DNA of 64,000 bases from NCBI RefSeq assembly GCF_048260245.1, contig NZ_JBLXGZ010000011.1:960-64959 (forward strand), in the 5' to 3' direction. The position numbers were made by a program, and so were the translations under genes. Below, piece after piece: positions 4,208 through 64,000 of the stretch. Each line of letters begins with the position of its first letter. Position 1 is the first letter of the stretch. The notes beneath the pieces are model-generated. The model made no database searches, was not told the origin of the DNA, and was given only the letters and a program-made list of their open reading frames with translations. The stretch comes from Kordiimonas sp. GTDB taxonomy: Bacteria > Pseudomonadota > Alphaproteobacteria > Sphingomonadales > Kordiimonadaceae.

Positions 4208-4223
4208 GGGAGTTCCTTTAGTT

Positions 4224-4763: not shown

Positions 4764-4788
4764 ATTTTCCTCCCGAAACGAGTTGAAG

Positions 4789-8365: not shown

Positions 8366-8408
8366 GCGGAATTTGATTTCCCAAAGTAACCCGATACTGA
8401 TTTGCCCT

Positions 8409-9608: not shown

Positions 9609-9611
9609 CCG

Positions 9612-9926: not shown

Positions 9927-11398
9927 TGAATTCTGATGAGAGCAATATGACACGCGAAGTTTACGACGTAGCAATCATTGGTGCCGGGCCGGCTGGCCTT
10001 GCCGCAGCGTCTGAACTGGTCAGTGCTGGCGTGCACATTGTGGTTCTTGATGAGCAACAGCGTCCAGGCGGTCAGATATTGCGTCAGCCTCCGTCCGGCT
10101 TCAACGTCACGAACTGGCTCAAGGGACCATTATATAGTGGTCTGAAAAATCTGTTGTTTGACATGGAACAACACCCCGGGGTCGAGTGGCATTTTGCAAC
10201 GACCGTCAGCGGTATTACCCAGTCGGGACCAGAGTTATTCGAAGTTTGGCATCAAGGGCCGGAAGGGCTTGCAGGAATTCTGGCGCGCCGGGTTCTGGTG
10301 GCAACGGGCGCTTACGAGAGGCCGTTAGCTTTTCCGGGCTCAACAGTGCCCGGGGTCATGGGGGCTGGTGCCATTCAGACCCTGCTGAAAAGCCAGCAGG
10401 TACTCGGTGGCGACAGCTTTGTTTTCGCGGGCGCCCATCCTTTGCAGCTGGTTGTGGCCGAGCAGGTATTGGCAGCGGGTGGCCATATTGAAGCCGTTGT
10501 TTTTGCCCAGCCCTTTTCCCGCAGCCTTTCCATACTAAAGTCCCCATTTTTGCCTCTCATGCACGGGCGGACATTTATGGCGGCCCTGAAGTCTTTCCGT
10601 GCGCTGAGAAAAGCCGGTGTACCGGTGCTCTTCGGCCAGACTGTATCGAGAGCTTACGGTGTGGATGCCCTGGAGAGGATCGAGGTATGCCCGGTTACGC
10701 CTGATGGGAGGCTCAAATCAGAAGGGGCCCAGCATTTCACCGCTGATACTCTGGGCCTTTGCTACGGCTTTCAGGTGTCGTCTGAGTTGGCCAGACAAGT
10801 GGGAGCAGAGACCTTTTGGGGTGGTGACACCGCCGGGGGCTGGTTGGTTAGCCATGACCGCTGGGGTGAAACCAGTGTCGTCGGCCTTTTTGCGGCGGGC
10901 GAGACAACAGGCATGGCCGGGGCCGATGCGGGCGTGGCGGAAGGACACATTGCAGGCATTGGCCTGCTGCGGTCGCTGGGGAAACGGGATGACCGCGCAT
11001 GCAACGCGGATGCACGGGGCCACCGAAAGCGGCTGGGTCATTATCAGAGGTTTGCGACTTATCTGCGCAGCTTTTCAGAGCTGCCTGAGCATTTGGTGGC
11101 GGGCATGATGACGCCGGAGAGTTATATATGTCGGTGTGAAACGGTCAGTTGTGCAGAGCTCAGCACTGTGCTGCATGAGAATAAACATCTTGCAGACGCG
11201 GGCAGTATCAAACTACTGAGCCGGGTTGGGATGGGGCGGTGTCAGGGACGGCTTTGTTATGCAAATTTTGCTGATATGGTGCGCAGCGAAACCGGAAAGA
11301 CAGAGGCTGATATTGGTCCGTTTCAAGCCCGTTGGCCTGCAAAGCCACTGGTGATCGGTGATATACTGGCAGATGAGGAAAACCCCGGGAACAACTAA
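9926..11398 (+). CDS. FAD/NAD(P)-binding oxidoreductase with a BFD-like [2Fe-2S] domain (HcnB/opine oxidase A type alpha subunit)
   Basis: YDVAIIGAGPAGLAAA Rossmann motif. Cys pairs CRCETVSC and GRCQGRLC. The start overlaps the upstream stop (TGATG). Confidence 0.8.
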   Translation: MNSDESNMTREVYDVAIIGAGPAGLAAASELVSAGVHIVVLDEQQRPGGQILRQPPSGFNVTNWLKGPLYSGLKNLLFDMEQHPGVEWHFATTVSGITQSGPELFEVWHQGPEGLAGILARRVLVATGAYERPLAFPGSTVPGVMGAGAIQTLLKSQQVLGGDSFVFAGAHPLQLVVAEQVLAAGGHIEAVVFAQPFSRSLSILKSPFLPLMHGRTFMAALKSFRALRKAGVPVLFGQTVSRAYGVDALERIEVCPVTPDGRLKSEGAQHFTADTLGLCYGFQVSSELARQVGAETFWGGDTAGGWLVSHDRWGETSVVGLFAAGETTGMAGADAGVAEGHIAGIGLLRSLGKRDDRACNADARGHRKRLGHYQRFATYLRSFSELPEHLVAGMMTPESYICRCETVSCAELSTVLHENKHLADAGSIKLLSRVGMGRCQGRLCYANFADMVRSETGKTEADIGPFQARWPAKPLVIGDILADEENPGNN

Positions 11399-11416
11399 TC
11401 CCCGGGGTCCGTTTTA
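11383..11416. terminator. bidirectional hairpin terminator between convergent genes
   Basis: CCCCGGG (11383-11389) pairs with CCCGGGG (11401-11407). A T-run follows on the plus strand (TCCGTTTTA) and on the minus strand (TTTTCCTC). Confidence 0.45.
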
Positions 11417-11430
11417 TGATTGTCAGGTGT

Positions 11431-35979: not shown

Positions 35980-36150
35980 GAAAAGCTGATTTGAGCGACA
36001 AAGGCGCGTGTCATTGTGGCTTCTTCGCAATAGCTGAGCAGTAAAAACCGAAAATTAGGTCACAGTGTCCGCTTTTCACCATAATTGTTGTCAAAACTCA
36101 TGGAAGCCCTGACAGTCGGGGCAAGAGCTCAGCAAATCTTGGGGGACATC

Positions 36151-39100
36151 ATGCGCCGTTATCTCGCCAGCCTTTTCATTGCTATTATTCTGTCTTCAGG
36201 GGCCATGTTCAGTGCGCCTGCGATTTTTGCGCAGGATGTTCCCGCGATCGAGAGCCACACTACAGAAGCCGACAGGTTTTTAACGCGTGCGGAAGACCTG
36301 AAGGCACGGCTTGGAGAGTTGCAGGCTGAGGCGAAAATTGATGACATGAGCCTGCTGGAAGTGCTGGCGCACAAAGGTCTTGAAGAAAACGTCGCCGATT
36401 TTGTGAAGTCAAACCGGATCGAGCTTGAGTTAGCCGCTGATCCAGCGTCAGCCGTGGCATGGCTGAAGGCATCAGGGGCGCTGAGTAAAGTTGAACGCGA
36501 GGAAGACGCGTTGGCCGCAGCGTGGAAGGCCTATGACCTTGCGGAAAAGGATGGCATCAAAGCGCAAGCGCTGGATGCCCTTGCCATGCATGCGCGAGAT
36601 GCAGGTCGCGGTCAGCATGCTCTCGCCATTTTGGAATACGCCTTGTCATTACAAGACAGCAAGGACAGGCGCGCGCACCGCGATGCAGTGCAGGGGCAAT
36701 TTACCCTGCGGGTCATCGACGTTGCCATAGACGTGGAGGCATTTTCGCCCACGGTTTGTCTGGTACTGTCGGAACAGCTGGCAACGGGCACTGCCGCAAA
36801 GGTGGAAGATTATCTGAGGCTACCATCCGGTTTTGACGCCAGCCTGCGCGCCAATGGCAACCGAATCTGTGTGACAGGACTTACGTACGGGCAGGAATTC
36901 AAGGTCACGGTGCTTGCGGGTCTCATGGGCACGGATGGCAGTCGTCTTTATAATGACATCACTCGAACCGTCACGGTGCCGAACAGGGAGCCGCGCGTCA
37001 ATTTTGGCAATGGCACCTATGTGCTGCCGCGTATGGGTGATGAGACGGTCCCCTTGAAGACAGTAAACATGAGCGCCGTAGACCTGAAGCTTTACCGCGT
37101 GTCCGATCGTGGCCTGGTGCCGCTCCTCAACAGCGGTGTCAAAAGCGACGCACTTTATGAATGGAGTGAAGGCCGCCTTGGTGGAGAATATGGCAGGCTT
37201 GTGTGGGAAGGCGCGATGGATGTCGAAAACATTCCCAACAAGGATGTAACCACACTTGTGCCCGTGCGGGACCTTATTGATGACAAGGGGCCGGGCATGT
37301 ATGCGCTTGTTGCCTCAGACCCGGCGGAAGATGAGAACCGGCGCTACCGGTATGAGCATCAGGCTCAGTGGCTCCTGATTTCCGACCTTGGCATGATGAC
37401 CCTGTCGGGGGATGACGGCTTGCATGTGTTCATGCATTCGCTCGAAACCGCAAAGGCGCTTCGCGGCGTGAACCTGAAGCTTGTGGCGCGCGACAACAGC
37501 ATCCTCAAAACGCTTGATACTGATCGCAGCGGCCATGCCGTCTTCGCACCTGCACTACTACGCGGTAAAGGCGGCGCAAGCCCGGCTGCCATTGTGGCTG
37601 AAACCGACAAGGGCGATTACGCCTTCCTCACATTGGACGGTCCTGCGCTAGACCTCAGCGACCGGGGCACGGACGGACGCAAGGCGTCTGGCCCGCTTGA
37701 TGCCTATATGTTTACCGAACGCGGGGTCTACCGCCCCGGCGAGACGGTGCATCTCTCCGCCCTGTTGCGGGACACCCGGGCCATGGCCGTGCCAGGGCTT
37801 CCCCTGACCTTCAAGGTTTTCCGGCCCGACGGGATGGAGGCTGAGAAGACAACCCTCAAGGGTGATCGTTTGGGCGGTTACGCTTATGACCTAACACTCT
37901 CGTCCGGTGCCCGTACGGGCCTTTGGCGGGCGGCTTTGTTCGCGGATGATGACGACAAAAGTATTGGCGAAGTGCGCTTCTCGGTCGACGAGTTTGTGCC
38001 CGAGCGCTTAAGCGCGACCCTGGATACCGCAGTGAAACAGGTGTCAGGTGACGCGCCTGTAGAAACCACGGTGCAGGCGGATTTCCTCTATGGTGCACCG
38101 GGGGCGGATCTCGCCGGCACGTTGGAAGTACAGCTTGAACGCGATCCGCAGCCTTTCCCGGATTATAAGGCCTATGACTTCGGTCTTGTACAGGAGGAGT
38201 ATAAACCGGCACCAGCGACACAGCAGAGTTTTGTTACAAATGAGACTGGCAGTGCTCAGGTTGCGGTCAGTTTCGCCCAGTTGCCGGACACCAGCCAGCC
38301 ATTGCGCGCACGGTTAAAGGCAGAGGTGGTTGATGTGGGCGGCCGTCCGGTGGCCGACACGGTTTTCCTACCGGTGAGACAGTCCCCTGTAATGTTGGGC
38401 GTGAAGACCAAAAATGCAGAGAGTTTTGACGAAGGTGAGCCGGCTAACATCGATGTGGTTGCGCTTTCCGCAGATGGACAGCCGCTCGGTGGCCATGGTC
38501 TGACCGTCGTGTGGGTGCGCGAACATTACCAGTATAACTGGTATCGGCTTGATGGTATGTGGCAGTTTCGCAGCACTAGCGTTGACGAGGTAATCGCGGA
38601 GCAGGAACTGTCAACCGGAACAGACGGCATGCTTTCACTCGAGCGCATGCTGGGCAATGGTCGTTACCGGGTTGATGTATTTGCCCACGACGACGAGGCG
38701 GCAAGCAGCACGCGGTTCCACGTCGGCTGGTGGTCGGCTGGCACCTCACCCGACGTGCCGGACGCGCTTGAGCTCACACTTGAGAGCTCCGCATTGAAGG
38801 CCGGTGATCGGTTACGCGGTTTTGTAAAGGCGCCATTTGAAGGCCGCGCACTTATTACTATCGTTAACGACCAACTGGTCGAACACAAACTCATCACCCT
38901 TGAGAGAAATGGCAGCGCCTTCGATTTTAAGGTCGCTGCTGAATGGGGGCCGGGGGCTTATGTGCTGGCAACCGCGCTCAGGCCCGATGCGGGTGAAGTT
39001 TCGCGCCTGCCGGTGCGGGCGACGGGACTTGCGTGGTTCTCGGTTGGGCGCACAGGCCATGTTGCAAAGCTTGAGATCGACGCGCCCGAAGTGGCGCTGC

Positions 39101-41403
39101 CGGGCAAAGCGGTAAAGCTGCCGATCCGTGTCAAAGGCGGTAAACCGGGTGAGGAGATGAAAGTTATCCTCGCCGCGGTGGATGAAGGCATCCTGAATAT
39201 TACGCGCTTTAAAAGCCCCAACCCGGACGCGTTTTATTATGGCCAGCGCGCTTTCTCAATGGACCTACGCGATGTATATGGTCGCTTGATACGGTCGGAA
39301 GAAGGCAGGCGTGGCTCCTTGCGCACGGGCGGTGATACCATGATGGTGACAGGTGCCCGCCTGACCGCTGAAGAACGCGCAGTTGATAACCTGTTTGCGG
39401 CTATCACGCGCACCGCCCGCACCGTGGCCGTTATCCGCCGTGATATCACCTTGGCGGAAGACGGTACGGCCACCGTTGAGCTGGACCTGCCGGATTTTGC
39501 CGGTCGACTGCGGCTGATGGCTGTGGCGTACGGGGCAACCATGGTCGGCGTTGGCGAAAGCGCGCTCACCGTGCGAACGCCAATTGTGGCAGAACTGATT
39601 TTGCCGCGTTTCCTGGCACCCGGTGACACGGCAGAGGCAACTTTGAGCGTGCAGAACCTCTCTGGAGCGACATCTGATGTGCAAGTCTCGCTGATGAGCG
39701 ATGGCTCGGCCATCGAACTTGCAGCAGGCACGGAAAACAGCTTAACGCTGGCACACAAGGAACGCCGGGATATCCCGGTTACGCTTCGCGGCCTGGTTCC
39801 GGGCGACGCGGGCCTGCACCTGACACTGGTTCGCAGCGGCGCGGAGGACATAAAACGCGATTGGGGCATCACAGTGCGCGCCGCATGGCCCTATTCAACA
39901 CAGCGCGAAAGCGAAGGCATTGCCCCCGGCGAGACAATGGAAATTGCAGCCACTGACATGGAGGCGTTTTACCAACAGACAGTGTCGGGGCAGCTTACTC
40001 TGTCGTCGCGCCCAAACCTTGAAGCTGACCGCATGATGCGTGCCCTGAATTTGTACGCTTACTGGTGTACGGAGCAGACCGTCTCGCGCGCCATGCCCGC
40101 ACTCAATCATTCACCGCTGTCGAAGCTCTATGATTTACCCATGAGTAAGACGGAGGCGGACGGCGCCGTAGAACGCGCACTTGTGGCGCTGCTTGACCGG
40201 CAAAAGGGCGATGGTAGCTTCGGTGTCTGGTCGCTCATGGGCAACAGAGATGCATGGCTAGATGCCTATGTCACCGACTTCCTGCTGCGTGCGGGTGAGG
40301 CTGGGTATACCGTGCCGGACGCGACCACCAGACTGTCGCTGAGGCGGCTTAAAAGCATAGCAGACCGCCATGGGCGCGGCCATATTGAGGCGCAAGCCTA
40401 TGCGCTTTATGTGCTGGCCCGCGTGGGCGACGTGTCTGCCAGTGAAGTGCGCTATTTTGCCGACCAATTTGCCAGCAAACTGCGTACACCTCTCGCACGC
40501 GCGCAGGTGGCAGCAGCGTTGAGCCATGTCGGTGAGCAGCAAACCGCTGAAGCCATGTTTGCAAGGGCTTACAAAAGCGCAAGGACCGAGGGCTATCATG
40601 CGGACTATGGCACCCGGATGCGGGACCAGGCGGCCTTCGCGGCCTTGCTGGCGGAGGTGATGCCAGACGCGCCTTACATGGCAGAATTAGCAGACCTGCT
40701 GGAGCGTGAGGTTGCCTATGAAGGCTGGCTCAGCACGCAGGAAATGGCCTGGATCGCCCGTGCGGCTGCTGCGTTTGCTGTTGAGGGGGATGGTCAGCTT
40801 TCAGCCACGCTGAACGGTGACGACAGGGTCAGCGCTGCCAGGGGTCTGTGGACGGGCAGCATTGGTAGCGACCTGCCCGATGGTGCATTGACGGTCACCA
40901 ATACGGGCAACAGTGCGATCCGGGCGGTGAAAACAGTGCGCGGTATTCCGGTAGCAGCACCAGAGCCAGTGGCAGAAGGTATGCGTATCAGCCGCGCCTA
41001 TTTCACCATGGACGGCAAGCCGGTGGACATGGCTGCTCTCAAGCGAAACGACCGTGTTGTGGTGTTGATCGAAGGTGTGGCCACGGCTGCGGCGGTGCGC
41101 GATACGCTTGTGGTGGATATGCTGCCGGCAGGGCTTGAGATCGAGACAACGGATGTCTCCTCTTTTGCGTTTCTGCCCACGCTTTCGTCCACCGAGTTTA
41201 CCGATGCCCGTGACGACCGTTTTGTCGGCGTGATCAAGCTTGGGCAATGGGGCGATTGGCGTAAGAATCGTTTCCGCCTTGCCTATGTCGTGCGGGGGAT
41301 TACGCCGGGGGACTATGTCATGCCCGGGGCATTCGCCGAAGACATGTACAAGCCTGAATTTCACACGCAAGGGCCGGTAAGTCGTATACGGATTGTGAAA
41401 TAG
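36151..41403 (+). CDS. bacterial alpha-2-macroglobulin family protein (YfhM type)
   Basis: About 1750 aa. Start placed at ATG 36151 (MRRYLASLFIAIILSSGAMFSAPAIFAQ signal peptide; the track starts at 36085). Thioester motif CTEQ is present, and the gene is followed directly by pbpC. Confidence 0.9.
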   Translation: MRRYLASLFIAIILSSGAMFSAPAIFAQDVPAIESHTTEADRFLTRAEDLKARLGELQAEAKIDDMSLLEVLAHKGLEENVADFVKSNRIELELAADPASAVAWLKASGALSKVEREEDALAAAWKAYDLAEKDGIKAQALDALAMHARDAGRGQHALAILEYALSLQDSKDRRAHRDAVQGQFTLRVIDVAIDVEAFSPTVCLVLSEQLATGTAAKVEDYLRLPSGFDASLRANGNRICVTGLTYGQEFKVTVLAGLMGTDGSRLYNDITRTVTVPNREPRVNFGNGTYVLPRMGDETVPLKTVNMSAVDLKLYRVSDRGLVPLLNSGVKSDALYEWSEGRLGGEYGRLVWEGAMDVENIPNKDVTTLVPVRDLIDDKGPGMYALVASDPAEDENRRYRYEHQAQWLLISDLGMMTLSGDDGLHVFMHSLETAKALRGVNLKLVARDNSILKTLDTDRSGHAVFAPALLRGKGGASPAAIVAETDKGDYAFLTLDGPALDLSDRGTDGRKASGPLDAYMFTERGVYRPGETVHLSALLRDTRAMAVPGLPLTFKVFRPDGMEAEKTTLKGDRLGGYAYDLTLSSGARTGLWRAALFADDDDKSIGEVRFSVDEFVPERLSATLDTAVKQVSGDAPVETTVQADFLYGAPGADLAGTLEVQLERDPQPFPDYKAYDFGLVQEEYKPAPATQQSFVTNETGSAQVAVSFAQLPDTSQPLRARLKAEVVDVGGRPVADTVFLPVRQSPVMLGVKTKNAESFDEGEPANIDVVALSADGQPLGGHGLTVVWVREHYQYNWYRLDGMWQFRSTSVDEVIAEQELSTGTDGMLSLERMLGNGRYRVDVFAHDDEAASSTRFHVGWWSAGTSPDVPDALELTLESSALKAGDRLRGFVKAPFEGRALITIVNDQLVEHKLITLERNGSAFDFKVAAEWGPGAYVLATALRPDAGEVSRLPVRATGLAWFSVGRTGHVAKLEIDAPEVALPGKAVKLPIRVKGGKPGEEMKVILAAVDEGILNITRFKSPNPDAFYYGQRAFSMDLRDVYGRLIRSEEGRRGSLRTGGDTMMVTGARLTAEERAVDNLFAAITRTARTVAVIRRDITLAEDGTATVELDLPDFAGRLRLMAVAYGATMVGVGESALTVRTPIVAELILPRFLAPGDTAEATLSVQNLSGATSDVQVSLMSDGSAIELAAGTENSLTLAHKERRDIPVTLRGLVPGDAGLHLTLVRSGAEDIKRDWGITVRAAWPYSTQRESEGIAPGETMEIAATDMEAFYQQTVSGQLTLSSRPNLEADRMMRALNLYAYWCTEQTVSRAMPALNHSPLSKLYDLPMSKTEADGAVERALVALLDRQKGDGSFGVWSLMGNRDAWLDAYVTDFLLRAGEAGYTVPDATTRLSLRRLKSIADRHGRGHIEAQAYALYVLARVGDVSASEVRYFADQFASKLRTPLARAQVAAALSHVGEQQTAEAMFARAYKSARTEGYHADYGTRMRDQAAFAALLAEVMPDAPYMAELADLLEREVAYEGWLSTQEMAWIARAAAAFAVEGDGQLSATLNGDDRVSAARGLWTGSIGSDLPDGALTVTNTGNSAIRAVKTVRGIPVAAPEPVAEGMRISRAYFTMDGKPVDMAALKRNDRVVVLIEGVATAAAVRDTLVVDMLPAGLEIETTDVSSFAFLPTLSSTEFTDARDDRFVGVIKLGQWGDWRKNRFRLAYVVRGITPGDYVMPGAFAEDMYKPEFHTQGPVSRIRIVK
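40066..40077 (+). other. thioester motif CTEQ of the alpha-2-macroglobulin
   Basis: TGT ACG GAG CAG lies in frame in the context YAYWCTEQTVSRA, matching the CxEQ thioester signature. Confidence 0.8.
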
Positions 41404-41406
41404 CCC

Positions 41407-43512
41407 GTGCTGGCAGGCCTATGGGCATACCGGAAGTGGGGCATCATGGGGCTGGTGGGGGTCATCCTCGCCTTTTTCATCGGCCTGCGCGTAATGGACC
41501 GTCTTTATCCGCCTGAACTGTCGCGTTATCACACTACGTCAGGTGAGGTACATGCCGCCGATGGGCGCCTTATGAGGCTTTTCACGGTTGAAGACGGTAT
41601 TCTCCGCCGCGCCGCGCATATTGAAGATGTGGACCCGCTCTATCTTCATATGCTGGTCGCCTACGAGGACAAGCGGTACTATGAGCATGGCGGCATTGAC
41701 TATCTCGCGCTTGCCCGGGCTTTGTGGCAGGCGGTCAAACATGGCGAAGTTGTCTCGGGTGCCTCAACGCTGACGATGCAAACAGCGCGCCTGCTGGAGC
41801 CGAGGCCACGGACCGTCAGGTCCAAACTGATTGAGATGTTTCGGGCGTGGCAGCTTGAACGCCGCTTTTCCAAGCGCGAAATACTTGAGATATACCTCAC
41901 CCTTGCGCCCTTCGGCGGCAATATTGAGGGGGTCAAGGCGGCCGCATACGCCTATTTGGGTCACGACGGCACACGGCTGACAGCCGACGAAGCAGCGCTT
42001 TTGGTTATTCTGCCGCAATCGCCAACGCGGCTAAGGCCTGACCGTCATGCGGACCGCGCGAAGACAGCGCGCAACAAGGTGCTGAACCGGGTAGCGGCGG
42101 ACATTGGCCTTGACGCCAGGGTGCATGACCTTGCGCTCAGGGCACCGGTGCCAGACAACCGTCATCATCTCACAATCGTTGCACCCCATCTCGCTGCTCG
42201 GTTGCGCATGGGCGGGCTGAAGGGCGTGGCGGTGACGCCGGTTGACTACGGCTTGCAGACAGAACTTGAGCGGCTTGTCAAAGTGCGCGCCGGTGCCGTG
42301 CATAAGCGCGCCAGTGCGGCCATTCTGGTGGTGGAAAACCGGTCGCGCCATGTGCTGGCCTATGTGGGTTCGGCCGGCATAGATGCACCCTCCCGGCTTG
42401 GGTATGTGGACATGGTAAGCGCCTTGCGTTCGCCCGGTTCCACCTTGAAACCGTTTATCTACGGCATGGCGTTTGATCGCGGGCTTGCCCATGCCGAAAC
42501 CCGTGTGCGCGATGAAGAACGCCGCTTTGGCAGCTATGCGCCCAGTAACTTCATGGACCGGCACTATGGTGATGTTTCCATTCGTGAGGCGCTTGTACGC
42601 TCGCTGAATGTACCTGCGGTTGCTGTTCTGGACCGGCTGGGGCCGGTGGCTTTCGCGGCGGAGATGCGCAGTGCCGGGGTGGTATTTCGCCTGCCGGGGA
42701 ACGAACCGCCAGGTCTGGCAGTGGCCCTCGGTGGGGTCGGCATGTCCCTTGAGGGGCTGGCACAATTATATACCGCGCTCGCGAGCGATGGTCTTGTGCG
42801 GCCCCTTGTGTATGAATTGAGCAAACCTCCCGTGCTGCCTGCCACTGGCGAAATACTGACGGCGCACGCGCGGTTGACGCTGTCGAATATCCTGTCTGCC
42901 GCCCGCCCGCCGGAGGACCGTTTGCCGGATGCGTATCATAGCCGCGCACGACCTCTGGCTTATAAAACCGGCACCAGCTATGGCTTTCGCGATGCGTGGG
43001 CCATTGGCTATGACGCTGATTTTACGGTGGCGGTATGGGTTGGCCGCGCTGACGGCACGCCGCTACCGGGCCATTTTGGCGCTAGCACGGCAGCGCCTAT
43101 TCTTTTTGATGTGTTTGACCGTTTGCCTGCCTCCGCTGCGCCCGAATGGGCAACCGGTTCGGGTGACCGGCGCAGTTTCAAGGACTTACCCCCTGCGCTT
43201 AAATATTTTGACGCCCCGGAACGACTGATGCTGGCAGGCGCGGGTGAGCAGCGATTGAGCATAAAATTCCCGCTGGATGGTAGCGTGATTGAGATACAGA
43301 AAGCCGATATGGTGCTATCTCTTAGCGCACATGGCGGTGCCCGCCCTCTGCAGTGGTTCGTGGATGGCAGACCACTCAAGACGAACCGCTGGTCCCGACA
43401 GGCCAGCTTTCGCCTTGAGAGCGAGGGGTTTTACCAGATCACAGTTGCGGATGCTGTCGGCCAAACCGCACATGCCCGTATTCGGGCTGCCCTACGCCCG
43501 CCTTCGCGTTAG
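41407..43512 (+). CDS. pbpC: penicillin-binding protein 1C (bifunctional transglycosylase/transpeptidase)
   Basis: 701 aa with a GTG start 4 nt after the A2M stop. Glycosyltransferase block EDKRYYEHGGID. Transpeptidase motifs STLK, SLN and KTGTS. Confidence 0.9.
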   Translation: MLAGLWAYRKWGIMGLVGVILAFFIGLRVMDRLYPPELSRYHTTSGEVHAADGRLMRLFTVEDGILRRAAHIEDVDPLYLHMLVAYEDKRYYEHGGIDYLALARALWQAVKHGEVVSGASTLTMQTARLLEPRPRTVRSKLIEMFRAWQLERRFSKREILEIYLTLAPFGGNIEGVKAAAYAYLGHDGTRLTADEAALLVILPQSPTRLRPDRHADRAKTARNKVLNRVAADIGLDARVHDLALRAPVPDNRHHLTIVAPHLAARLRMGGLKGVAVTPVDYGLQTELERLVKVRAGAVHKRASAAILVVENRSRHVLAYVGSAGIDAPSRLGYVDMVSALRSPGSTLKPFIYGMAFDRGLAHAETRVRDEERRFGSYAPSNFMDRHYGDVSIREALVRSLNVPAVAVLDRLGPVAFAAEMRSAGVVFRLPGNEPPGLAVALGGVGMSLEGLAQLYTALASDGLVRPLVYELSKPPVLPATGEILTAHARLTLSNILSAARPPEDRLPDAYHSRARPLAYKTGTSYGFRDAWAIGYDADFTVAVWVGRADGTPLPGHFGASTAAPILFDVFDRLPASAAPEWATGSGDRRSFKDLPPALKYFDAPERLMLAGAGEQRLSIKFPLDGSVIEIQKADMVLSLSAHGGARPLQWFVDGRPLKTNRWSRQASFRLESEGFYQITVADAVGQTAHARIRAALRPPSR

Positions 43513-55212: not shown

Positions 55213-56403
55213 ATGGAATTTGATATTACACCCTGGCTGAACCTTGCGATCCGTTGGCTGCATTTCATCACTGGCATCGCGTGGATAGGCTCCAGCTTCT
55301 ATTTTGTCTGGCTCGACAACCATCTTGAAGAGCCAAAGGAGAAAAAGAAGGGCATGTCGGGTGAGCTATGGTCGGTGCATGGTGGTGGCTTTTACCACAA
55401 GCAGAAATATGCTGTTGCGCCTGAACAGATGCCGGAAAAGCTGCACTGGTTCAAATGGGAAGCCTATTTCACATGGATGAGCGGATTTGCCTTGCTTGCA
55501 GTCATCTATTATCTGGGTGCGGACCTGTTCCTGATCGACAGGTCCAAGATGGAACTGAGCCAGCTACAAGCCATTGGCATCAGCCTTGCCTTCATCGTGG
55601 GGGGCTGGTTTTTTTATGACGGCCTTTGCCGTTCGCCTTTGGGCAAAAACAACAAGCTAACGGGTATCATCTGGTTCCTCAGCCTGACAGCGGCAGCTTA
55701 TGCGCTGACGCATATTTTCTCCGACCGGGCGGCCTTCATCCATGTCGGGGCGATGGCAGGCACTGCGATGGCGGCCAATGTTTTCATGGTCATTATCCCG
55801 AACCAGAAAAAGGTTGTCGCGGCGCTGACCTCAGGCGAGGCACCCGACCCGCGTCTGGGCCAGATTGGCAAGCAGCGCAGTTTGCACAATAATTACATGA
55901 CCCTGCCGGTCCTCTTTCTGATGATCTCCAACCACTATCCGATGACGTTTGCAAACCCCTACAGCTGGCTCATCCTTGCGGGCATCGGGCTTGTAGGGGT
56001 GATGGTGCGGCATTTCTTCAACCTGCGTCATAGGGGAAAAAACAGCCCTGGCCTTGTGTTTGCAGCGGTCGCCTTGTTTATCCTGATTGCTATGTTCGCC
56101 GCCGATGCGGAGAAAGCGTCCCGCGCCCGGTTTGCACAAGTGGCAGCGTCATTTTCTCAAGTTCAGGCCATCATTGGCAAACATTGCACCTCATGCCATG
56201 CCGCTACGCCAACACATGAAAGTTTTGACGAAGCCCCGGGTGGTGTGATGCTGGACAAGCCGGAACTGATCCAGCAGCACGCCCGGCGGATCATGGAGCA
56301 GACGGTCAAAGCGGACATCATGCCGCTTGGCAACGAGACCGGCATGACCGACGAGGAGCGTGCCCTGATCGGCAAGTGGATTGAAGACGGAGCCAAGCGG
56401 TGA
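55213..56403 (+). CDS. puuD: urate hydroxylase PuuD (membrane cytochrome c urate oxidase)
   Basis: 396 aa. N-terminus WLNLAIRWLHFITGIAWIGSSFYFVWLDNHL, several TM segments, and a C-terminal heme c motif CTSCH. Confidence 0.85.
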   Translation: MEFDITPWLNLAIRWLHFITGIAWIGSSFYFVWLDNHLEEPKEKKKGMSGELWSVHGGGFYHKQKYAVAPEQMPEKLHWFKWEAYFTWMSGFALLAVIYYLGADLFLIDRSKMELSQLQAIGISLAFIVGGWFFYDGLCRSPLGKNNKLTGIIWFLSLTAAAYALTHIFSDRAAFIHVGAMAGTAMAANVFMVIIPNQKKVVAALTSGEAPDPRLGQIGKQRSLHNNYMTLPVLFLMISNHYPMTFANPYSWLILAGIGLVGVMVRHFFNLRHRGKNSPGLVFAAVALFILIAMFAADAEKASRARFAQVAASFSQVQAIIGKHCTSCHAATPTHESFDEAPGGVMLDKPELIQQHARRIMEQTVKADIMPLGNETGMTDEERALIGKWIEDGAKR

Positions 56404-56912
56404 GCAAGCGCACCCTTGATATCGAGCCACTGACAGCGGCGGCATTCGCGCCATACGGTGATGTGATTGAGGCATCGGCCACTGCGCGGCAGATACCCAT
56501 CAACTATGGCAACACCATACGTTTCCACGACCTCGCGAAGCTTGAGCTGACCAGCGGCGGCGGCCAGGCAGGGGTCAGCATCTTTCGCTCGACACCCTTA
56601 CCGTTGCCGATCACGGTAAAGGTGATGGAATATCATCCGAAGTCCTCGCAGGCATTTGTGCCGCTTTCAGCCAATCCTTATTTAGTGGTGGTCGCAGAAA
56701 AAGGTGACTTTGACGCGGGCAAACTGCGAGCCTTCAGGGCAGAGCCCGGGCAGGGCATAAACTATTACGCCGGTACGTGGCATCACTTCAGCCTTGCGCT
56801 GAATGAGGTGAGCGACTTTCTGGTGATTGACCGTATTGCTGATGATGAAAACTGTATTGAACACCAACTAAGCCATACAGAACAAGTCGCCCTTACGCTT
56901 CCGATAGCGTGA
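56400..56912 (+). CDS. allA: ureidoglycolate lyase
   Basis: 170 aa with a GTG start overlapping the puuD stop (GTGA). PLTAAAFAPYGDVIE, VSIFRS and MEYHPKSSQAFVPL blocks. Confidence 0.85.
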   Translation: MSKRTLDIEPLTAAAFAPYGDVIEASATARQIPINYGNTIRFHDLAKLELTSGGGQAGVSIFRSTPLPLPITVKVMEYHPKSSQAFVPLSANPYLVVVAEKGDFDAGKLRAFRAEPGQGINYYAGTWHHFSLALNEVSDFLVIDRIADDENCIEHQLSHTEQVALTLPIA

Positions 56913-58596
56913 TCAGGCCGATTTTTGCGAAAGCAACAATAACAACCGCAATTTTGGCGGGCGAGGCTTTCAGCTTTGTTGCCAGATTAGCCACGGTCAG
57001 TCCCGGTGTCCCTTCAATAATCCGGAGGAGTTTTCCAGCTGATGGGGCGCTCGGCAGTACCTGTTTCGCATAATCAAACATCTGAAGCTTCAAGGCTTCC
57101 GCATAGCGCATGGCCAGATCGTTACCCAGAGGAGTTATTCTGGTGTTCATGGCGACAACATGCGTTGGATAGGCGGCGAAGGCCTTATAGGGGTCCATGC
57201 GAGCCGGGGCTGCCTTTGGCGCGTTTGACGGGAGATATCTATCGGCGCTTTGCTGGCGTATCGATCCTAGCTCAGTCCAGAGCGCCTGATATTGTTTATA
57301 AATCACACTCCAGTCAAACGTGGCGCGCGCATAGGTGCGACCAAAGTTTCCCATTTTTTGTCGTAGCGACGGGTCGTTGACGAGGTCACGGAAGCTCGTC
57401 GTAAGACTTGCCTGGTCCAGAGCTATGGTTTGGCATGCGTATCCGCTGTAGCGGTCATAGCTGTCTGTCCGCGCCTCATGGCGCGCTGCCAGCCTATGTA
57501 CCTCGTCGTCCACAAGGGTCCATGTCGGAATACGGAACCCTGCTTTGCCATTGGGCACGGTGTCCTTGTATCCATCCCAATCACTGACGACGACGGGCAG
57601 ACCTGCCGCCATCGCTTCGATGGGGGTAATGCCAAAGGTTTCCTGAAAATTGTCGGCCAGTGACGCGAAGATATCTGCTGCCGCCCAACTCGCGTTTCTG
57701 GCTGCGGTGTCTTTTCCATCGGTAAAGACACAACGTACACTGGGACAGATGGCTTTTGGGGTCGACTTGTAGGCTTGTTTGATTGCATCGTTGGCAAACC
57801 AGCCACATTGGATCAAAACGAGCTTTTTTCCAGTTTCCCTGGCGACATTTTCCAGCGCCAGCATCATGGCATGAGGGTGCGCCTTTGCATGGTATGACAG
57901 GCGTCCGACATATAGTATGGCGATCTCGTCATCCTGAATTTGAAGCGCCTTGCGCGCAACTTTTTTGTCATTGTCGTCAAAGACAAAATCATCACATTGA
58001 ATACCAAGGGGGATTACCGGCAATTGCGGTAAAACCGGTTCAATGTTTTTTCCGAAACGCCAGCGCAACAGATCCATCTGTGCCTCAAGGATTGTATCAA
58101 CCGTACTTTTGACGGCATTTGACGTGCATATTAGCGCATCCCATGGCATGACCGGCGCACTCAGCATGGCGGAAATGGCATCCATGGCGCCGTGACTGGC
58201 GGTGGTATGGGTGACGCCGCATATGCTGAATGCGTCTGGCCCCACACGCAGGCGCTGATTGGCATAGGTATCGAGGTTTGGACCCGGAATATATAGCGTG
58301 CCAGTGTTCTTCAGCAGGTCTGGCCGGTGCGTTGGGTACCACTGTGTCTTGACGGAAGAATTGATCGAATTTACGAGGCTGCTGAAAACTTTCGCTGATC
58401 GTTCGCTTGGGCTAAAGCAAGACAGTGGTTGCGCGCCCGCATGTGCAATAGCTGCCCGCAGGAAGCTGTTCCCCGCTGCCTGCCGCCCCATAATTTTGTC
58501 GCCTGTGACAACATATCCATCAGGCTCAAAGTAAATCGTGGCATGTGCGGCAGTTTGCATAAGGCAGTGTCCTGTTGACGGAAAAGTCTGCTGCAT
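56893..58596 (-). CDS. glycosyltransferase family 4-like (GT-B, group 1) protein with extended N- and C-terminal regions
   Basis: 567 aa; an alternative start is ATG 58560. E-x7-E region ETFGITPIEAMAAGLPVVVSDWDGY. The 3' end overlaps allA by 20 nt on the opposite strand. Confidence 0.75.
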   Translation of the reverse strand: MQQTFPSTGHCLMQTAAHATIYFEPDGYVVTGDKIMGRQAAGNSFLRAAIAHAGAQPLSCFSPSERSAKVFSSLVNSINSSVKTQWYPTHRPDLLKNTGTLYIPGPNLDTYANQRLRVGPDAFSICGVTHTTASHGAMDAISAMLSAPVMPWDALICTSNAVKSTVDTILEAQMDLLRWRFGKNIEPVLPQLPVIPLGIQCDDFVFDDNDKKVARKALQIQDDEIAILYVGRLSYHAKAHPHAMMLALENVARETGKKLVLIQCGWFANDAIKQAYKSTPKAICPSVRCVFTDGKDTAARNASWAAADIFASLADNFQETFGITPIEAMAAGLPVVVSDWDGYKDTVPNGKAGFRIPTWTLVDDEVHRLAARHEARTDSYDRYSGYACQTIALDQASLTTSFRDLVNDPSLRQKMGNFGRTYARATFDWSVIYKQYQALWTELGSIRQQSADRYLPSNAPKAAPARMDPYKAFAAYPTHVVAMNTRITPLGNDLAMRYAEALKLQMFDYAKQVLPSAPSAGKLLRIIEGTPGLTVANLATKLKASPAKIAVVIVAFAKIGLITLSEA

Positions 58597-60460: not shown

Positions 60461-60973
60461 GTGAGGGTGACCAGCACAGCGATGGTGACACGGGGCGCAA
60501 TGCGGTTTCTTGTGGAATTGGGATATGCCCCACTGGCCGAAGTTTCCCTGACCAATGGCCGCAGGGCTGATATTGTCTCGCTGGACCGTGGCGGACGCTG
60601 CATTATTGTTGAGGTTAAATCCGGCCTGGCCGATTTTCGCAGCGACAATAAATGGCGCCAATATCTTGACTACTGCGAAGAGTTTTACTTTGCGGTTGAT
60701 ATGTCGTTTCCGCAGGAAGTCCTTGAGGAAAACAACAGCCTTCCCGGCCTCACGGGCGTCATCGTGGCAGATGCCTTTGGCGCGGAAATTATACGCCCGG
60801 CATGCGGCCGCACCGTCAATGCTGCCCGGCGCAGGGCTTTGGCGTTGAAAATGGCGAGGGTGGGCGCCATGCGATTGTCCGGAGGAGTATCTGGTATGGA
60901 TCGGGGGCAGGCAGCCGGGCGTCCAACACTGAATCCCGAAATGCCGGCCTCTTCGAGCAGAAACCATTTTTGA
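60461..60973 (+). CDS. MmcB family DNA repair protein (PD-(D/E)xK-like)
   Basis: LVELGYAPLAEVSLTNGRRADIVSLDRGGRCIIVEVKSGLADFRSDNKWRQYLDYCEEFYFAV. The exact start is uncertain: GTG 60461 or a downstream ATG. Confidence 0.75.
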   Translation: MRVTSTAMVTRGAMRFLVELGYAPLAEVSLTNGRRADIVSLDRGGRCIIVEVKSGLADFRSDNKWRQYLDYCEEFYFAVDMSFPQEVLEENNSLPGLTGVIVADAFGAEIIRPACGRTVNAARRRALALKMARVGAMRLSGGVSGMDRGQAAGRPTLNPEMPASSSRNHF

Positions 60974-63031
60974 TTAGTCGGCCTCTTTGATCACTTCGGT
61001 GTAGCCTTTCCAGCGTTCACGGCCGTCCTTGTTCTCCAGGGCGTTCTGTAGCGCGGCTACGGCACGGCGTTCGTATTTCAGTCCAGCTTCGCTGTTCAGA
61101 ATATCCATGGCCTTGTCGAAGCCAAGACCTGACCTGTGGGAGCGAGCCGAGACCATGCCCACAAAGGCATTCGCAACGGAGAGTATCCGCGCACCGGGCT
61201 CTATCTCTTCGCCTTTTCGGCCTTCTGGCTCACCGCTGCCGTCCCAATGCTCGCGCAGTTGCCGCAAGGTTGCTGCGACAGGGCCCTTAAAGTCCAGCCC
61301 GGCAACCAGCCCTGCCCCTTTCTGCATGCTATCGCGGACGAGAGAAAACTCTTCCTCACTGAGGGCACCCTGTTTGGTGAGAATTTCAGTGGGTACGAAA
61401 ATCTTGCCCAGATTGACCAGCTGCCCGGCGATCCGGATGCTCTCTGTTGCTTCGCTTTCCCACCCCATTTCTTGCGAGATAGTTGATGCAACATCTGCAA
61501 CACGCTCAGAGTGATGTTTGCTCCATGGGTCACGGGCATCGATAATTTGTGTAAGCGTGCTGACTAACTGTTTAAACAGCGTCTCTGACTGATCCTTGGC
61601 GGCAACGAGCGAGGAAATGTCCTGCATAACCAGCAGTGCACTCGCATGGTCGTCGGCCGCGGCCTGCAGCGGCAGCAACTGGGTTTGAAATATGCGTTCA
61701 CTGCCCTCGGCAGGAAGGCGAATCTGGAAATTTTTTGCTTCGCCCGCGGCTGCGCTTTTGGTTCCCTTGCGTATTTGCTCAGCAATTTCACTTGGGAAAG
61801 CGGTATCAAGGCGGCGGTCTTTCAAGTCGGTGACGGGCAGATTGATCACTTCGCCCATTTTCCGGTTGGCAAACCGGACCGTGAGGTCATCATCCAGAGC
61901 CGCGATCGCGTTTGGCTGGCTGTCGCTCACGGATTGCAGGAACCGGTTAAGACCCTGATTTTGTGCAGAGAGAGCTGCCTGTTCGCGGTAACTGGCTTCA
62001 AGGCGCCGCGATACACCGTGGCGCCAGCTCAGGATCAGCCCCGCCAGGACAAAGAGTGCAGCCAGCGAAAGCGTCACAATCAGGTTATTGCGCCGTGCAT
62101 TGATTTCGGCCAATGCTTCGGCGCCGCTGATGGTGCGTACGAGGATCCAGTTCACAGGTGCTGTCAGCTCGCGCCCGGTTACCAAGACATCTGTGCCCGC
62201 GTAATTTTTTTCAATGGCGAACGCGCCGGGTCGGCTGATCGCGAATGCTGCTGCGGGGTCGAGGCGGGGTTCTCCAACACGGCCACCCTCCGCGAGCGGG
62301 GTAAGCGGGGTGAGCAAGGGCCCTTCTCCGGGGGTGACGATATAGGTTTCAGCGGTGTCACTGGCAGCCCCGGGTTGCTGAAGCGTTTTAAGAAAGTCGC
62401 CATCTAGCGGCCGGGCTCCGATCACCCAGTTGATTCCCGGCGTGCTGCCGGCAAGGCCTTCATCCGTGGCGACCGGGGCGCCAAAAAGCACCAGCGGTGT
62501 TTTGTCTTCCAGCAGCGGCCCGAGCGCAATGAACGCCCCCCGCGACAGTGCGGGCCACTCTCCCGGACGCAGGACAGGCATACCACTTGTGGCGACCAGA
62601 GGCGAGCCGTCACTGCGCAGGATCGCGATGCCGGCGCGCTGTGGTCGTTTGATGTTTGCGGCCAATTGATCAATGGCCGTTTTTTCGTGAAAGCCCTGCC
62701 GCTCTGCGGCGGCTGACAGGAGTGCATAAACATAGCCGCGCTGCCCTTGGGCCGCCTCAGGCAAATCATCGAGGCTGCCGCCCGCATAAAGCTGAATGGT
62801 GGCATCGCCGGCAAGTTCTTCTACACTGGCAAGATAGCGGTTGAGCCATGCAGACACCTCTGTCGCACGGCTATCGGCAACAAGGTTAAGTCGGTCCTGC
62901 CAGCGTGCCATGTCTTGTTCGGCTTCTGATTCGGCAAACTTGAAAATTGCCAGAAAACCGATTGCTGCAATCACCAGAATGGCAATAGCTGTCAGCACCA
63001 CTGATTTGCTGTTACCCTTGTCGCCCACCAT
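60974..63031 (-). CDS. transmembrane signalling protein: TM, roughly 285-aa periplasmic domain, TM, PAS-like region, degenerate HD-GYP domain
   Basis: 685 aa. TM1 at about residues 11-31 and TM2 at about 317-335. The C-terminal domain aligns by eye to HD-GYP (KHHSERVA...LVNLGKIFVPTEILTKQG...REHWDGSGEPEG) with HD replaced by VN and GYP by GEP. AGGGGA RBS. Confidence 0.8.
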   Translation of the reverse strand: MVGDKGNSKSVVLTAIAILVIAAIGFLAIFKFAESEAEQDMARWQDRLNLVADSRATEVSAWLNRYLASVEELAGDATIQLYAGGSLDDLPEAAQGQRGYVYALLSAAAERQGFHEKTAIDQLAANIKRPQRAGIAILRSDGSPLVATSGMPVLRPGEWPALSRGAFIALGPLLEDKTPLVLFGAPVATDEGLAGSTPGINWVIGARPLDGDFLKTLQQPGAASDTAETYIVTPGEGPLLTPLTPLAEGGRVGEPRLDPAAAFAISRPGAFAIEKNYAGTDVLVTGRELTAPVNWILVRTISGAEALAEINARRNNLIVTLSLAALFVLAGLILSWRHGVSRRLEASYREQAALSAQNQGLNRFLQSVSDSQPNAIAALDDDLTVRFANRKMGEVINLPVTDLKDRRLDTAFPSEIAEQIRKGTKSAAAGEAKNFQIRLPAEGSERIFQTQLLPLQAAADDHASALLVMQDISSLVAAKDQSETLFKQLVSTLTQIIDARDPWSKHHSERVADVASTISQEMGWESEATESIRIAGQLVNLGKIFVPTEILTKQGALSEEEFSLVRDSMQKGAGLVAGLDFKGPVAATLRQLREHWDGSGEPEGRKGEEIEPGARILSVANAFVGMVSARSHRSGLGFDKAMDILNSEAGLKYERRAVAALQNALENKDGRERWKGYTEVIKEAD

Positions 63032-63189
63032 AATTCATCCCCTGCATCAATGGTTTCCCCTCCGTTGTAGCTTACTGACTGCGGGGTGGGAAGGCGATCT
63101 GTTCAAGGAAGTTACTTGGAACATCAAAGCCATCCCAGTATGTTAACGACTATGCCTTTGGGCTCAATCATTTTTCTACACGGTAATTT

Positions 63190-63885
63190 ATGCGTCGTCT
63201 TACTTGTCTCATACTGGTTTCGTTTTCTCTCATCCTACCGGCTCCGGGCTTCATGGTGGATGCCCAGGTCACACGCGGCCTTTTTGGCAGCATGGAAATC
63301 CGGTCTACCAATATGGCGAAATTCGCGAAATGGACCGAGATGTGGCGGCGATACAATTTGCCCCGGCAGACAGCAGGCGAACAAGATCAGTCAACGCAAA
63401 ACTTGTCTAAGGAGAGTTCCTGCCGGGGTTTGGCGCGCGTTCGGTGTAGCAGGGAAGCGTGGGACAATTTTATCGGGCAAAACAGGTCAACGCCGGAGAG
63501 AGAATTGCTCGACAAAGTGAATGCTTATATGAATCGGGCCTCCTATATCGTGGATCCGGTGAATTGGGGTATTCCGGATTACTGGGCAACGCCAGATGAG
63601 TTTTTTCTCAAGGATGGAGATTGCGAAGATTATGCGATCAGTAAGTATGTCACCTTGAAAAGGCTGGGCATCGCGCCGGATGCGATGCGGCTGGTTATCT
63701 TACAGGATGAAAACCTGAAAGTGGCACATGCGGTCCTTGCTGTTTCGTTGGGCGATAATATCTTTATTCTCGATAATCAGGTCGATGCGGTCTTGCCTCA
63801 CACCAAGATTTTGCATTACAGGCCTGTGTACTCGATCAACGAATCTGCATGGTGGCTGCACCGCATGATAAGCTTTTCAGGTTAA
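63190..63885 (+). CDS. bacterial transglutaminase-like cysteine proteinase (BTLCP, LapG-like), periplasmic
   Basis: 231 aa. Signal peptide MRRLTCLILVSFSLILPAPGFMVDA. Cys-His-Asp triad contexts DGDCEDYAISKY, KVAHAVLAV and FILDNQ. Confidence 0.85.
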   Translation: MRRLTCLILVSFSLILPAPGFMVDAQVTRGLFGSMEIRSTNMAKFAKWTEMWRRYNLPRQTAGEQDQSTQNLSKESSCRGLARVRCSREAWDNFIGQNRSTPERELLDKVNAYMNRASYIVDPVNWGIPDYWATPDEFFLKDGDCEDYAISKYVTLKRLGIAPDAMRLVILQDENLKVAHAVLAVSLGDNIFILDNQVDAVLPHTKILHYRPVYSINESAWWLHRMISFSG

Positions 63886-64000
63886 ATTAATAAATTATCC
63901 CCTAAGATACCGGGTCTCGGTAGTCGGGAGAAATCAGGCTGGGCAATCCAATTGAGTAAAGACGTTACAACGCTTGACCGGATGGTTGACTATGTAAAGC

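Follow-up and report, generated by a model that had tools for sequence, protein, structure and literature searches.

The receptor–protease locus

Close to one end of a 64,000-nucleotide stretch of a Kordiimonas sp. genome (contig NZ_JBLXGZ010000011.1; the whole stretch is called the window below), two genes diverge from each other. One encodes a predicted transmembrane (TM) receptor of 685 aa with a degenerate HD-GYP domain and the other a putatively secreted cysteine protease of the bacterial transglutaminase-like cysteine proteinase (BTLCP) family, to which LapG belongs. Both open reading frames (ORFs) and the 158-bp gap between them lie where an initial annotation, made from the letters alone, had placed them; the coordinates of all features are collected in Table 1. 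The nearest relatives of the receptor and the protease are Kordiimonas aestuarii proteins, with 82 per cent (over 100 per cent of the length) and 74 per cent identity, respectively. Promoters between the two genes can only be inferred, because the intergenic region contains no match to the sigma-70 consensus. A consensus scan of 60,800–64,000 for promoters and terminators returned nothing informative.

The receptor has the TM–periplasmic–TM topology that had been proposed for it. Two hydrophobic segments (about residues 11–33 and 316–336) bracket a periplasmic region of 283 aa (the earlier estimate was about 285), and Pfam places a PAS and an HD-GYP domain in the cytoplasmic part. No LapD_MoxY_N, HAMP, GGDEF or EAL domain was found in a Pfam scan of the receptor. 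We modelled residues 34–316 with AlphaFold2 (AF2) from a 22-sequence alignment (pLDDT 85.5, pTM 0.84), and the top Foldseek matches of this model in the PDB were all double-Cache (dCache) sensors (DctB, PctA, McpH, Mlp37, and Tlp3; E ~1e-7, probability 1.0). Pfam dCache_1 matches are carried by more distant members of the receptor family. The long N-terminal helix of the modelled domain is broken into segments 2–41, 44–50, and 58–79, like the helix described for McpH and for DvhD, a Desulfovibrio receptor introduced below.

The protease matches Pfam Peptidase_C93 (PF06035, BTLCP; E 2.5e-16) and the crystal structures of LapG (4FGO, E 4e-22; 4U65_E, E 6e-21), with the GDCEDYA, AH(A/M)VL, and ILD blocks in register. 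Its catalytic triad (C145, H180, and D195) had been numbered correctly and aligns with the LapG structures. The GDCEDYA block, which sets acidic residues beside the active site (D-C-E), is identical to the aligned LapG block and is a putative calcium site. The N-terminus (MRRLTCLILVSFSLILPAPGFMVDA) starts with MRR followed by a hydrophobic run that peaks at residues 3–25, and by inspection it looks like a signal peptide, as had been suggested. Membership of the LapG family, also claimed at the outset, holds in these Pfam and structure matches and does not extend to the NCBIfam definition of LapG itself, a point to which we return.

Table 1. Features of the receptor–protease locus in the window, and corresponding features in related loci (prefix L, with coordinates of those loci).
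Feature	Coordinates	Strand	Basis or content
Receptor gene, DvhD-like, 685 aa	60974..63031	-	ORF; TM1, periplasmic dCache, TM2, PAS, degenerate HD-GYP
TM1, residues ~11–33	62933..63001	-	Kyte-Doolittle 19-residue windows >1.6, starts at residues 6–19
Periplasmic dCache domain, residues 34–316, 283 aa	62084..62932	-	AF2 model and Foldseek
TM2, residues ~317–336	62024..62083	-	Hydrophobicity windows starting at residues 314–319
Cytoplasmic PAS, residues ~364–475	61607..61942	-	Pfam PAS_4 370–475, E 1.7e-12; aligns to PAS of DvhD 9RC0
Degenerate HD-GYP, residues 493–655	61067..61555	-	Pfam HD_5 (HD-GYP model), E 1.7e-37
Divergent intergenic region, 158 bp, between the two start codons	63032..63189	.	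Presumed site of both promoters
BTLCP/LapG-like periplasmic cysteine protease gene, 231 aa	63190..63885	+	Signal peptide, C145-H180-D195 triad, GDCED calcium-site motif
Third gene, first 16 codons, cut by window end	63952..64000	+	Predicted soluble degenerate GGDEF-EAL protein, ~434 aa in K. aestuarii
Third-gene orthologs	L001:7791–9095, L002:7784–9034, L003:7718–8977	-
Sneathiella double-pair layout	L064 (Sneathiella chungangensis) 457–12109; also L046, L048, L050, L051, L055, L057, L058, L062, L063, L076, L077

Homology to DvhD

The best PDB match of the receptor is DvhD (9RC0/9RBZ, 'HD domain/sensory box protein'), with E 2e-36 for the single sequence. Using the family profile, 9RC0 scored E 4.6e-68, compared with 7.9e-37 and 2.2e-24 for the active enzymes V-cGAP3 (5Z7C) and PmGH (4MCW). 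The two DvhD entries are PAS/HD-GYP and HD-GYP–cyclic di-GMP (c-di-GMP) structures of DVU1020 from Desulfovibrio (Nitratidesulfovibrio) vulgaris Hildenborough (PMC13090378). DvhD is a TM, periplasmic, TM, PAS, HD-GYP protein encoded beside the BTLCP DvhG (DVU1019). The Kd of its cytoplasmic fragment for c-di-GMP is 322 nM, and when the system was reconstituted in P. fluorescens, DvhD rescued biofilm formation from DvhG, an effect that depended on c-di-GMP (PMC10990149; PMC13090378). DvhD did not hydrolyse c-di-GMP with any metal tested, and its HD and HH motifs read SQ and MN (PMC13090378). Its periplasmic domain is a dCache, and c-di-GMP splays the stalk helices, which has been proposed to drive inside-out signalling (PMC13090378).

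An HD-GYP version of the Lap switch is therefore already in print (PNAS 2024; Nat Commun 2026, Desulfovibrio DvhD/DvhG), and the mechanism that the initial annotation proposed for the window is essentially the DvhDG model. Its statement that such a domain had not been described in this role has to be withdrawn.

A degenerate HD-GYP domain with partly conserved nucleotide-contact residues

We mapped the eight metal ligands of PmGH onto the receptor by HMMER alignment to 4MCW (chain index = residue number + 6). In PmGH these are E185, H189, H221, D222, H250, H276, H277, and D305 (Bellini et al., PMC4159591), and single alanine substitutions essentially abolish activity at all of them except E185 and D305 (PMC4159591). 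The receptor keeps one of the eight, H507 (H189). The others are replaced by W503 (E185), V539 (H221), N540 (D222), S568 (H250), L592 (H276), R593 (H277), and N621 (D305), so that five of the six positions that are essential by alanine substitution are changed. Metal-ligand loss had first been read by eye, and the formal alignment to PmGH bears it out. The motif positions given with that reading were also right, apart from one slip of 3 nt: LVNLGK occupies residues 538–543 (VN at nt 61412–61417), REHWDGSGEP residues 593–602 (nt 61226–61255, not 61252), RDSMQKG residues 566–572, and ANAFVG residues 620–625.

The same single ligand is retained across 33 family members that range from 33 to 82 per cent identity. 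N540 and N621 are invariant in this set (33/33), position 539 is always aliphatic, and position 568 is Ser in 29/33. As far as sequence can tell, the degeneracy is a fixed pseudo-enzyme state rather than decay, and the domain is predicted to be unable to hydrolyse its nucleotide because seven of the eight metal ligands are gone.

Several residues that contact the nucleotide in characterised homologs are kept in the receptor family. R630 (DvhD R650, PmGH R314), R633 (PmGH K317), and R500 (DvhD K520) are invariant, as are D501 and K543 (PmGH D183 and K225). M626, L557, and P547 are nearly invariant, and position 648 is E or D. The canonical c-di-GMP contacts of DvhD are Y523, L577, K582, Y621, M646, R650, Y652, and E668, with a bridging site formed by K520, P567, and R569 (PMC13090378). 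In an alignment to 9RC0, from which the receptor numbering is derived, the canonical contacts correspond to W503, L557, F562, E601, M626, R630, H632, and E648, and the bridging site to R500, P547, and E549. Four of the eight canonical contacts are identical (L557, M626, R630, and E648) and two are conservatively changed (W503 for Y523 and H632 for Y652). Most likely, then, the domain keeps a nucleotide pocket and binds c-di-GMP, judging from these residues and from the analogy with DvhD. With the contacts part kept and part lost, nucleotide binding is likely, not assured, and the specificity could differ.

Conservation of the pairing

To survey relatives we scanned one genome per species. At least 536 genomes encode a relative of the receptor, and the best 80 loci were analysed; nearly all of them come from marine Alphaproteobacteria (Kordiimonadales, Sneathiella, Emcibacter, Curvivirga, Marivibrio, Aestuariispira, Thalassospiraceae, and others). 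Loci with enough flanking sequence were counted as informative, which left 78 for the pairing count. In 73 of these 78, each from a different species, a BTLCP gene lies on the opposite strand no more than 700 nt upstream of the receptor. This pairing is far beyond chance. The reading first given to the locus depended on the pairing being conserved in related genomes, and it is. GDCEDYA is kept in 70 BTLCPs that neighbour receptors of the related loci.

The layout varies in one distant relative (L005), where two tandem BTLCP genes precede the receptor (8035–9808).

Two receptor clades in Sneathiella

Sneathiella loci contain two receptor/BTLCP pairs (Table 1). The first consists of a receptor (receptor1) divergent from its protease (BTLCP1) and is the counterpart of the window pair. 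It is followed by genes for a TolC-like OEP, a C39-ABC transporter, and HlyD, and then by a second protease (BTLCP2) and a second receptor (receptor2). Receptor2 has the DvhD signature (LSQIGK, DGSGYP, and RSY) in 12/12 Sneathiella loci. In the window clade, every member with a readable motif has [V/M/I]N at the HD position, and the residue at the place of the GYP Tyr varies (E in Kordiimonas, Q in Sneathiella, and Tyr in 1/80).

Scored against the DvhD cytoplasmic module, receptor2 reaches 165 bits, receptor1 144–158 bits, and the window receptor 135 bits (28 per cent identity). A neighbour-joining bootstrap tree of the HD-GYP domain, rooted on V-cGAP3, recovers the window clade and the receptor2 clade with 99 per cent support each. 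DvhD itself joins either clade in only 47 per cent of bootstraps; the motif signatures and the slightly higher bit score (165 vs 135–158) favour grouping it with receptor2. By these comparisons the window receptor is not a DvhD ortholog and belongs to a distinct, widespread alphaproteobacterial sister clade.

The published list of 78 DvhD homologs includes alphaproteobacteria (Sneathiella, Kiloniella, Pelagibius, Fodinicurvata, and others) and does not include Kordiimonas. In the published neighbourhood table, the accession order for S. aquimaris fits the two-pair layout. From this order we infer that the S. aquimaris 'DvhD homolog' is receptor2, and that receptor1 is listed there just as a neighbouring 'HD domain-containing phosphohydrolase'.

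The two Sneathiella proteases also differ. BTLCP2, which lies inside the type I secretion system (T1SS) operon, has Ser in place of the catalytic Cys (GGxSxDF) in 9/9 readable sequences of the 12, whereas BTLCP1 keeps GDCEDY. The sequences suggest an arrangement of one pseudo-protease and one active protease, in which BTLCP1 would be the sole BTLCP with a catalytic Cys beside that T1SS.

A third gene for a predicted soluble GGDEF-EAL-like protein

The last 49 nt of the window, read from a putative TTG start at 63952, translate to LSKDVTTLDRMVDYVK, which matches the N-terminus of K. aestuarii P0241. The initial annotation, made from the window, had no view of this gene; a look-up of the exact protease sequence gave no record, and the region past the window end was read from relatives. 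This gene is unannotated; it encodes 416–434 aa and lies after the BTLCP gene on the same strand in K. aestuarii, Kordiimonas sp. SCSIO 12610, and Temperatibacter marinus. It follows the BTLCP gene in 27 of 28 informative Kordiimonadales-like loci and in 14 of 40 more distant informative loci (Emcibacter, Curvivirga, Aestuariispira, and others), and is absent from the Sneathiella loci. All 56 database homologs of the protein are 'hypothetical' or unnamed.

No TM segment or signal peptide was found in the third protein. Its Pfam EAL match is weak (32 bits in Temperatibacter, below threshold in the others). A sequence search of the PDB gave no match, and a profile search gave a weak one to an EAL domain (E 0.015). 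In the AF2 model (pLDDT 83.4), a disordered linker joins an alpha/beta domain at the N-terminus to a barrel at the C-terminus, and the best Foldseek matches of the model span both domains of GGDEF-EAL tandems (RbdA, 3e-12; MorA; PA0575; DosP). LapD of P. fluorescens (3PJW, 3e-9) and of V. cholerae (6PWK, 7e-9) were matched as well, and FimX, a degenerate c-di-GMP receptor, was a further match for the EAL half. Conservation does not extend to the catalytic motifs (GGDEF and DDFG/EGVE), while K369 and Q424-G425 are conserved.

From these fold matches, the module would contain a soluble protein built like the cytoplasmic half of LapD. The gene is co-oriented with the protease gene, 66 nt downstream of it, with no terminator-like site between the two, and this position suggests a functional link to the cytoplasmic side of the receptor. 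There the protein is probably an additional c-di-GMP sensor or adaptor, a role that we offer as speculation. We also compared the residue at the GYP-Tyr position with the occurrence of the third gene and found no clean relationship: E is typical of Kordiimonas, and the position is variable in other lineages that have the gene.

Proposed mechanism

We read the locus as an inside-out switch of the DvhDG/LapDG type, in which a nucleotide gates the control of a periplasmic protease, and put the probability of this reading at roughly 0.55. The receptor would be an inner-membrane dimer with a cytoplasmic HD-GYP domain that is predicted not to hydrolyse. The nucleotide pocket would most likely bind c-di-GMP, in view of the conserved contact residues and the homology to DvhD. 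Binding would alter the dimer formed by the PAS domain and stalk helix, and this change would pass through the membrane to the dCache domain, as the crystal structures of DvhD suggest by analogy. The dCache domain would bind or otherwise restrain the secreted, Ca-dependent cysteine protease encoded divergently; the pairing of the genes is conserved, and the interaction of their products is putative. When the nucleotide level falls, the protease would be free to cut a substrate in the envelope. Most likely this would be the module that retains a type-I-secreted adhesin in the periplasm, the adhesin being encoded at another place in the genome. For an unlinked substrate there is a precedent in P. 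aeruginosa, where LapG cleaves CdrA (PMC4694147).

Secretion genes do adjoin the pair in some relatives. In 12 Sneathiella loci the window-type pair is immediately next to a TolC/C39-ABC/HlyD T1SS, and a T1SS is also present in L044, L071, L078, and L080. In two uncultured alphaproteobacteria, giant RTX/cadherin proteins are encoded next to the pair (L082, 5220–11681 on the minus strand; L044, 1–3909 on the plus strand). The L082 protein exceeds 2154 aa and has Cadherin_5/Big_9/Cadherin_4 repeats. Both giants are cut at the N-terminus by contig ends.

The initial annotation had the same core, a dead HD-GYP domain in a protein of LapD-like topology that gates a LapG-like protease. The homology to DvhD speaks strongly for it and the pairing is conserved, while the protease and its surroundings fit less well, and the following observations weigh against the switch or against an adhesin as its target. 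The protease scores 96.1 bits against the NCBIfam LapG equivalog (NF045674), whose cutoff is 320. Two DvhD contacts are lost in the receptor, the GYP Tyr (Y621 to E601) and K582 (to F562), and both positions are variable across the clade. The window clade is without DvhD's SQ/GYP signature, and in the neighbour-joining tree DvhD attaches to the window clade and to the receptor2 clade with 47 per cent bootstrap support each. The family profile gave no sequence-level match between the receptor's periplasmic domain and the dCache of DvhD (9RC2); because of this, and because the Foldseek library predates 9RC2 (release cutoff 2026-04-08), the dCache assignment rests on fold matches to other dCache sensors.

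The surroundings of the pair count on the same side. No T1SS, RTX, or giant-adhesin gene was found among the genes of the 64-kb window, in agreement with the earlier remark that it holds no adhesin substrate, and in 30 Kordiimonadales loci neither HlyD/TolC genes nor an adhesin lie within 10 kb. The sole exception among these 30 is an 881-aa RTX protein in L035, which we rejected as a substrate: its N-terminus is cadherin-like, with no LapA-type retention module and no di-alanine motif. In L005 the module sits inside an exopolysaccharide (EPS) cluster (Poly_export, Wzz, Wzy_C, Bac_transf, and several GT4), the published neighbourhood table places glycosyltransferases beside several DvhD homologs of alphaproteobacteria, and HvyA, a BTLCP of Caulobacter, demonstrates that alphaproteobacterial BTLCPs can control capsulation (PMC4241560).

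Alternative readings

In a variant of the switch that we think improbable, the system would be a three-component Lap/Dvh hybrid. The receptor, short of two contacts, would rely on or be tuned by the GGDEF-EAL-like protein, and the protease would target some other envelope component, not a linked T1SS adhesin. The GGDEF-EAL-like protein may then be a detached LapD cytoplasmic module that supplies c-di-GMP sensing or docks a specific diguanylate cyclase. If true, this would be an undescribed wiring of c-di-GMP to periplasmic proteolysis, widespread in marine Alphaproteobacteria.

The main rival to the switch is a polysaccharide target of the kind known from HvyA. The protease would act on capsule or EPS export machinery and the receptor would gate it, so that encapsulation or EPS would be controlled rather than adhesin release. 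HvyA, a BTLCP of the periplasm, has the same triad, its Ca-site residues are conserved, and it blocks capsulation; it is partly complemented by homologs found in S. meliloti and in S. fredii, and BTLCPs are particularly widespread in alphaproteobacteria (PMC4241560). The Kordiimonadales loci, with no T1SS or adhesin near the pair, would suit such a target, as would the L005 pair and its tandem BTLCPs within a Wzz/Wzy/Poly_export/glycosyltransferase cluster, the glycosyltransferases beside published alphaproteobacterial DvhD homologs, and a GT1-family gene 2.4 kb away in the window (56893–58596; its ortholog is annotated in a relative). HvyA itself, however, is regulated by its cell-cycle-dependent abundance and not by a receptor, and its direct target is not known (PMC4241560). 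Most loci of the clade have no polysaccharide genes beside the pair, and T1SS genes adjoin it in Sneathiella and four other loci, with RTX adhesins in L044 and L082. No capsular polysaccharide export genes flank the pair in the window or in L001–L003. We regard a polysaccharide target as unlikely.

Next comes an outside-in sensor, which we consider very doubtful. Here the dCache domain would sense a ligand from outside the cytoplasm, perhaps something that the protease produces, the dead HD-GYP domain would contact the GGDEF-EAL-like partner, and the protease would not be sequestered. Typically, dCache domains are ligand sensors, and inactive HD-GYP proteins that work by protein–protein contacts are documented (RpfG, HnoD, and ECA3548; bioRxiv 10.1101/2021.11.05.467447). 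Loss of the GYP-Tyr and K582 contacts and the presence of a conserved gene for a cytoplasmic partner would fit, and LapD is described as signalling in both directions (PMC5231407). But R630, R633, M626, and L557, which contact the phosphates or bases, show little or no variation, and this speaks for a nucleotide pocket that has been kept. The pairing also holds in the 26 of 40 informative distant loci that are without the third gene, so the protease is the constant partner, and the closest characterised homolog, DvhD, works inside-out.

Finally, the receptor can hardly be an active, sensor-regulated c-di-GMP phosphodiesterase next to a functionally unrelated protease: its strong matches to Pfam HD_5 and to NCBIfam phosphodiesterase families, and the database name of its homologs ('HD-GYP domain-containing protein (c-di-GMP phosphodiesterase class II)'), stand against the family-wide replacement of 7/8 metal ligands, including five of the six positions at which alanine essentially abolishes PmGH activity (PMC4159591), the inactivity of the comparably degenerate DvhD with any metal tested (PMC13090378), and a pairing with the protease kept in 73/78 loci.

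Neighbouring genes

The gene convergent with the receptor (60461–60973, plus strand) occupies the position of an MmcB-like gene (Pfam PF06319) of K. aestuarii. Its last base directly precedes the receptor stop codon, which leaves neither intergenic sequence nor a terminator-like structure between the convergent genes.

In three relatives, not all equally distant, a RegB/RegA-type two-component pair lies just past the module on its BTLCP side (L001, 5892–7777; L004, 7131–9037; L006, 7107–9075). It consists of a 6TM_PilS-HisKA-HATPase protein and a REC protein, with faint HTH_8/HTH_30-type matches in 2/3 loci, and SCO1/SenC is nearby in K. aestuarii. The pair is probably conserved core-genome synteny, not a component of the system.

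Further into the window, the two ORFs in 55213–56912 (plus strand) lie where K. aestuarii has genes matching Urate_ox_N (396 aa in both organisms) and Ureidogly_lyase (170 aa in each), and adjoin malate synthase and xanthine dehydrogenase genes. This region appears to be a purine-catabolism cluster unrelated to the receptor/protease pair. At 36085–43512 (plus strand), an alpha-2-macroglobulin gene (MG domains, bait region, and TED) lies directly before a gene for a PBP1C-type penicillin-binding protein, the usual periplasmic defence pair. The 1772-aa ORF at 36085–41403 had been tried as an adhesin and was rejected as this ordinary bacterial alpha-2-macroglobulin. Two other large ORFs near the pair in relatives were tried as substrates and proved irrelevant, one encoding a SAM/cyclase/AAA protein (L071) and one a PD40/amidohydrolase protein (L018).

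Comparison with known systems

DvhD/DvhG is the closest system. The receptor has the same architecture (TM, dCache, TM, PAS, and an HD-GYP without metal ligands) and has in common with DvhD the ANAF(x)xM block, the R650 equivalent, and other c-di-GMP contacts. Its neighbour is likewise a BTLCP with the triad and Ca motif, and signal peptides also occur in most orthologs of DvhG. The motifs differ, however, with VN/LR/GEP in the receptor against SQ/MN/GYP in DvhD and Ser in place of the mid-domain His, and the cytoplasmic modules are only about 28 per cent identical. The genes are divergent here and form an operon in Desulfovibrio, and the Kordiimonadales have no linked T1SS or adhesin and an extra soluble GGDEF-EAL-like gene after the protease.

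LapD/LapG (P. fluorescens, Legionella pneumophila, and Vibrio cholerae) resembles the locus in having a homologous protease, LapG, whose catalytic and Ca-site motif and periplasmic targeting agree with those of the window enzyme, and in the use, as predicted here, of a dead c-di-GMP-turnover domain as a receptor with TM/periplasmic/TM topology. The third protein has the modelled fold of the cytoplasmic GGDEF-EAL pair of LapD. In contrast to LapD, the receptor is without LapD_MoxY_N, HAMP, GGDEF, and EAL domains, and the protease falls below the NCBIfam LapG cutoff. The GGDEF-EAL-like protein is separately encoded and predicted to be soluble, and there is no adjacent lapA or lapEBC.

HvyA of Caulobacter crescentus (CCNA_00166) is, by its published description, also an alphaproteobacterial Sec-exported BTLCP with the triad, Ca-site residues, and no linked LapA-type adhesin. 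Unlike the window protease, it is encoded in a capsule export locus and controlled by abundance, with no membrane receptor or c-di-GMP link known. The inactive HD-GYP proteins RpfG (X. campestris), HnoD (S. oneidensis), and ECA3548 (P. atrosepticum) have degenerate active-site motifs and regulatory, non-enzymatic roles as well, but they are cytoplasmic REC-HD-GYP response regulators with neither a periplasmic domain nor a protease partner.

To date, work on the HD-GYP form of the Lap biofilm switch has been confined to Desulfovibrio. The locus described here represents a sister clade that has not been characterised; its motif signature differs, no secretion system is linked to it, and it has an additional GGDEF-EAL-like partner. 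Receptor/protease pairs of this clade, related to DvhD/DvhG yet distinct, are very common in marine Alphaproteobacteria, and in many of them the pair is uncoupled from an adhesin operon and has gained the GGDEF-EAL-like partner. Working out the partner and the substrate would show how far the logic of a dead c-di-GMP enzyme gating a periplasmic protease has diversified, and could link the switch to the still-unexplained HvyA-type BTLCPs of alphaproteobacteria.

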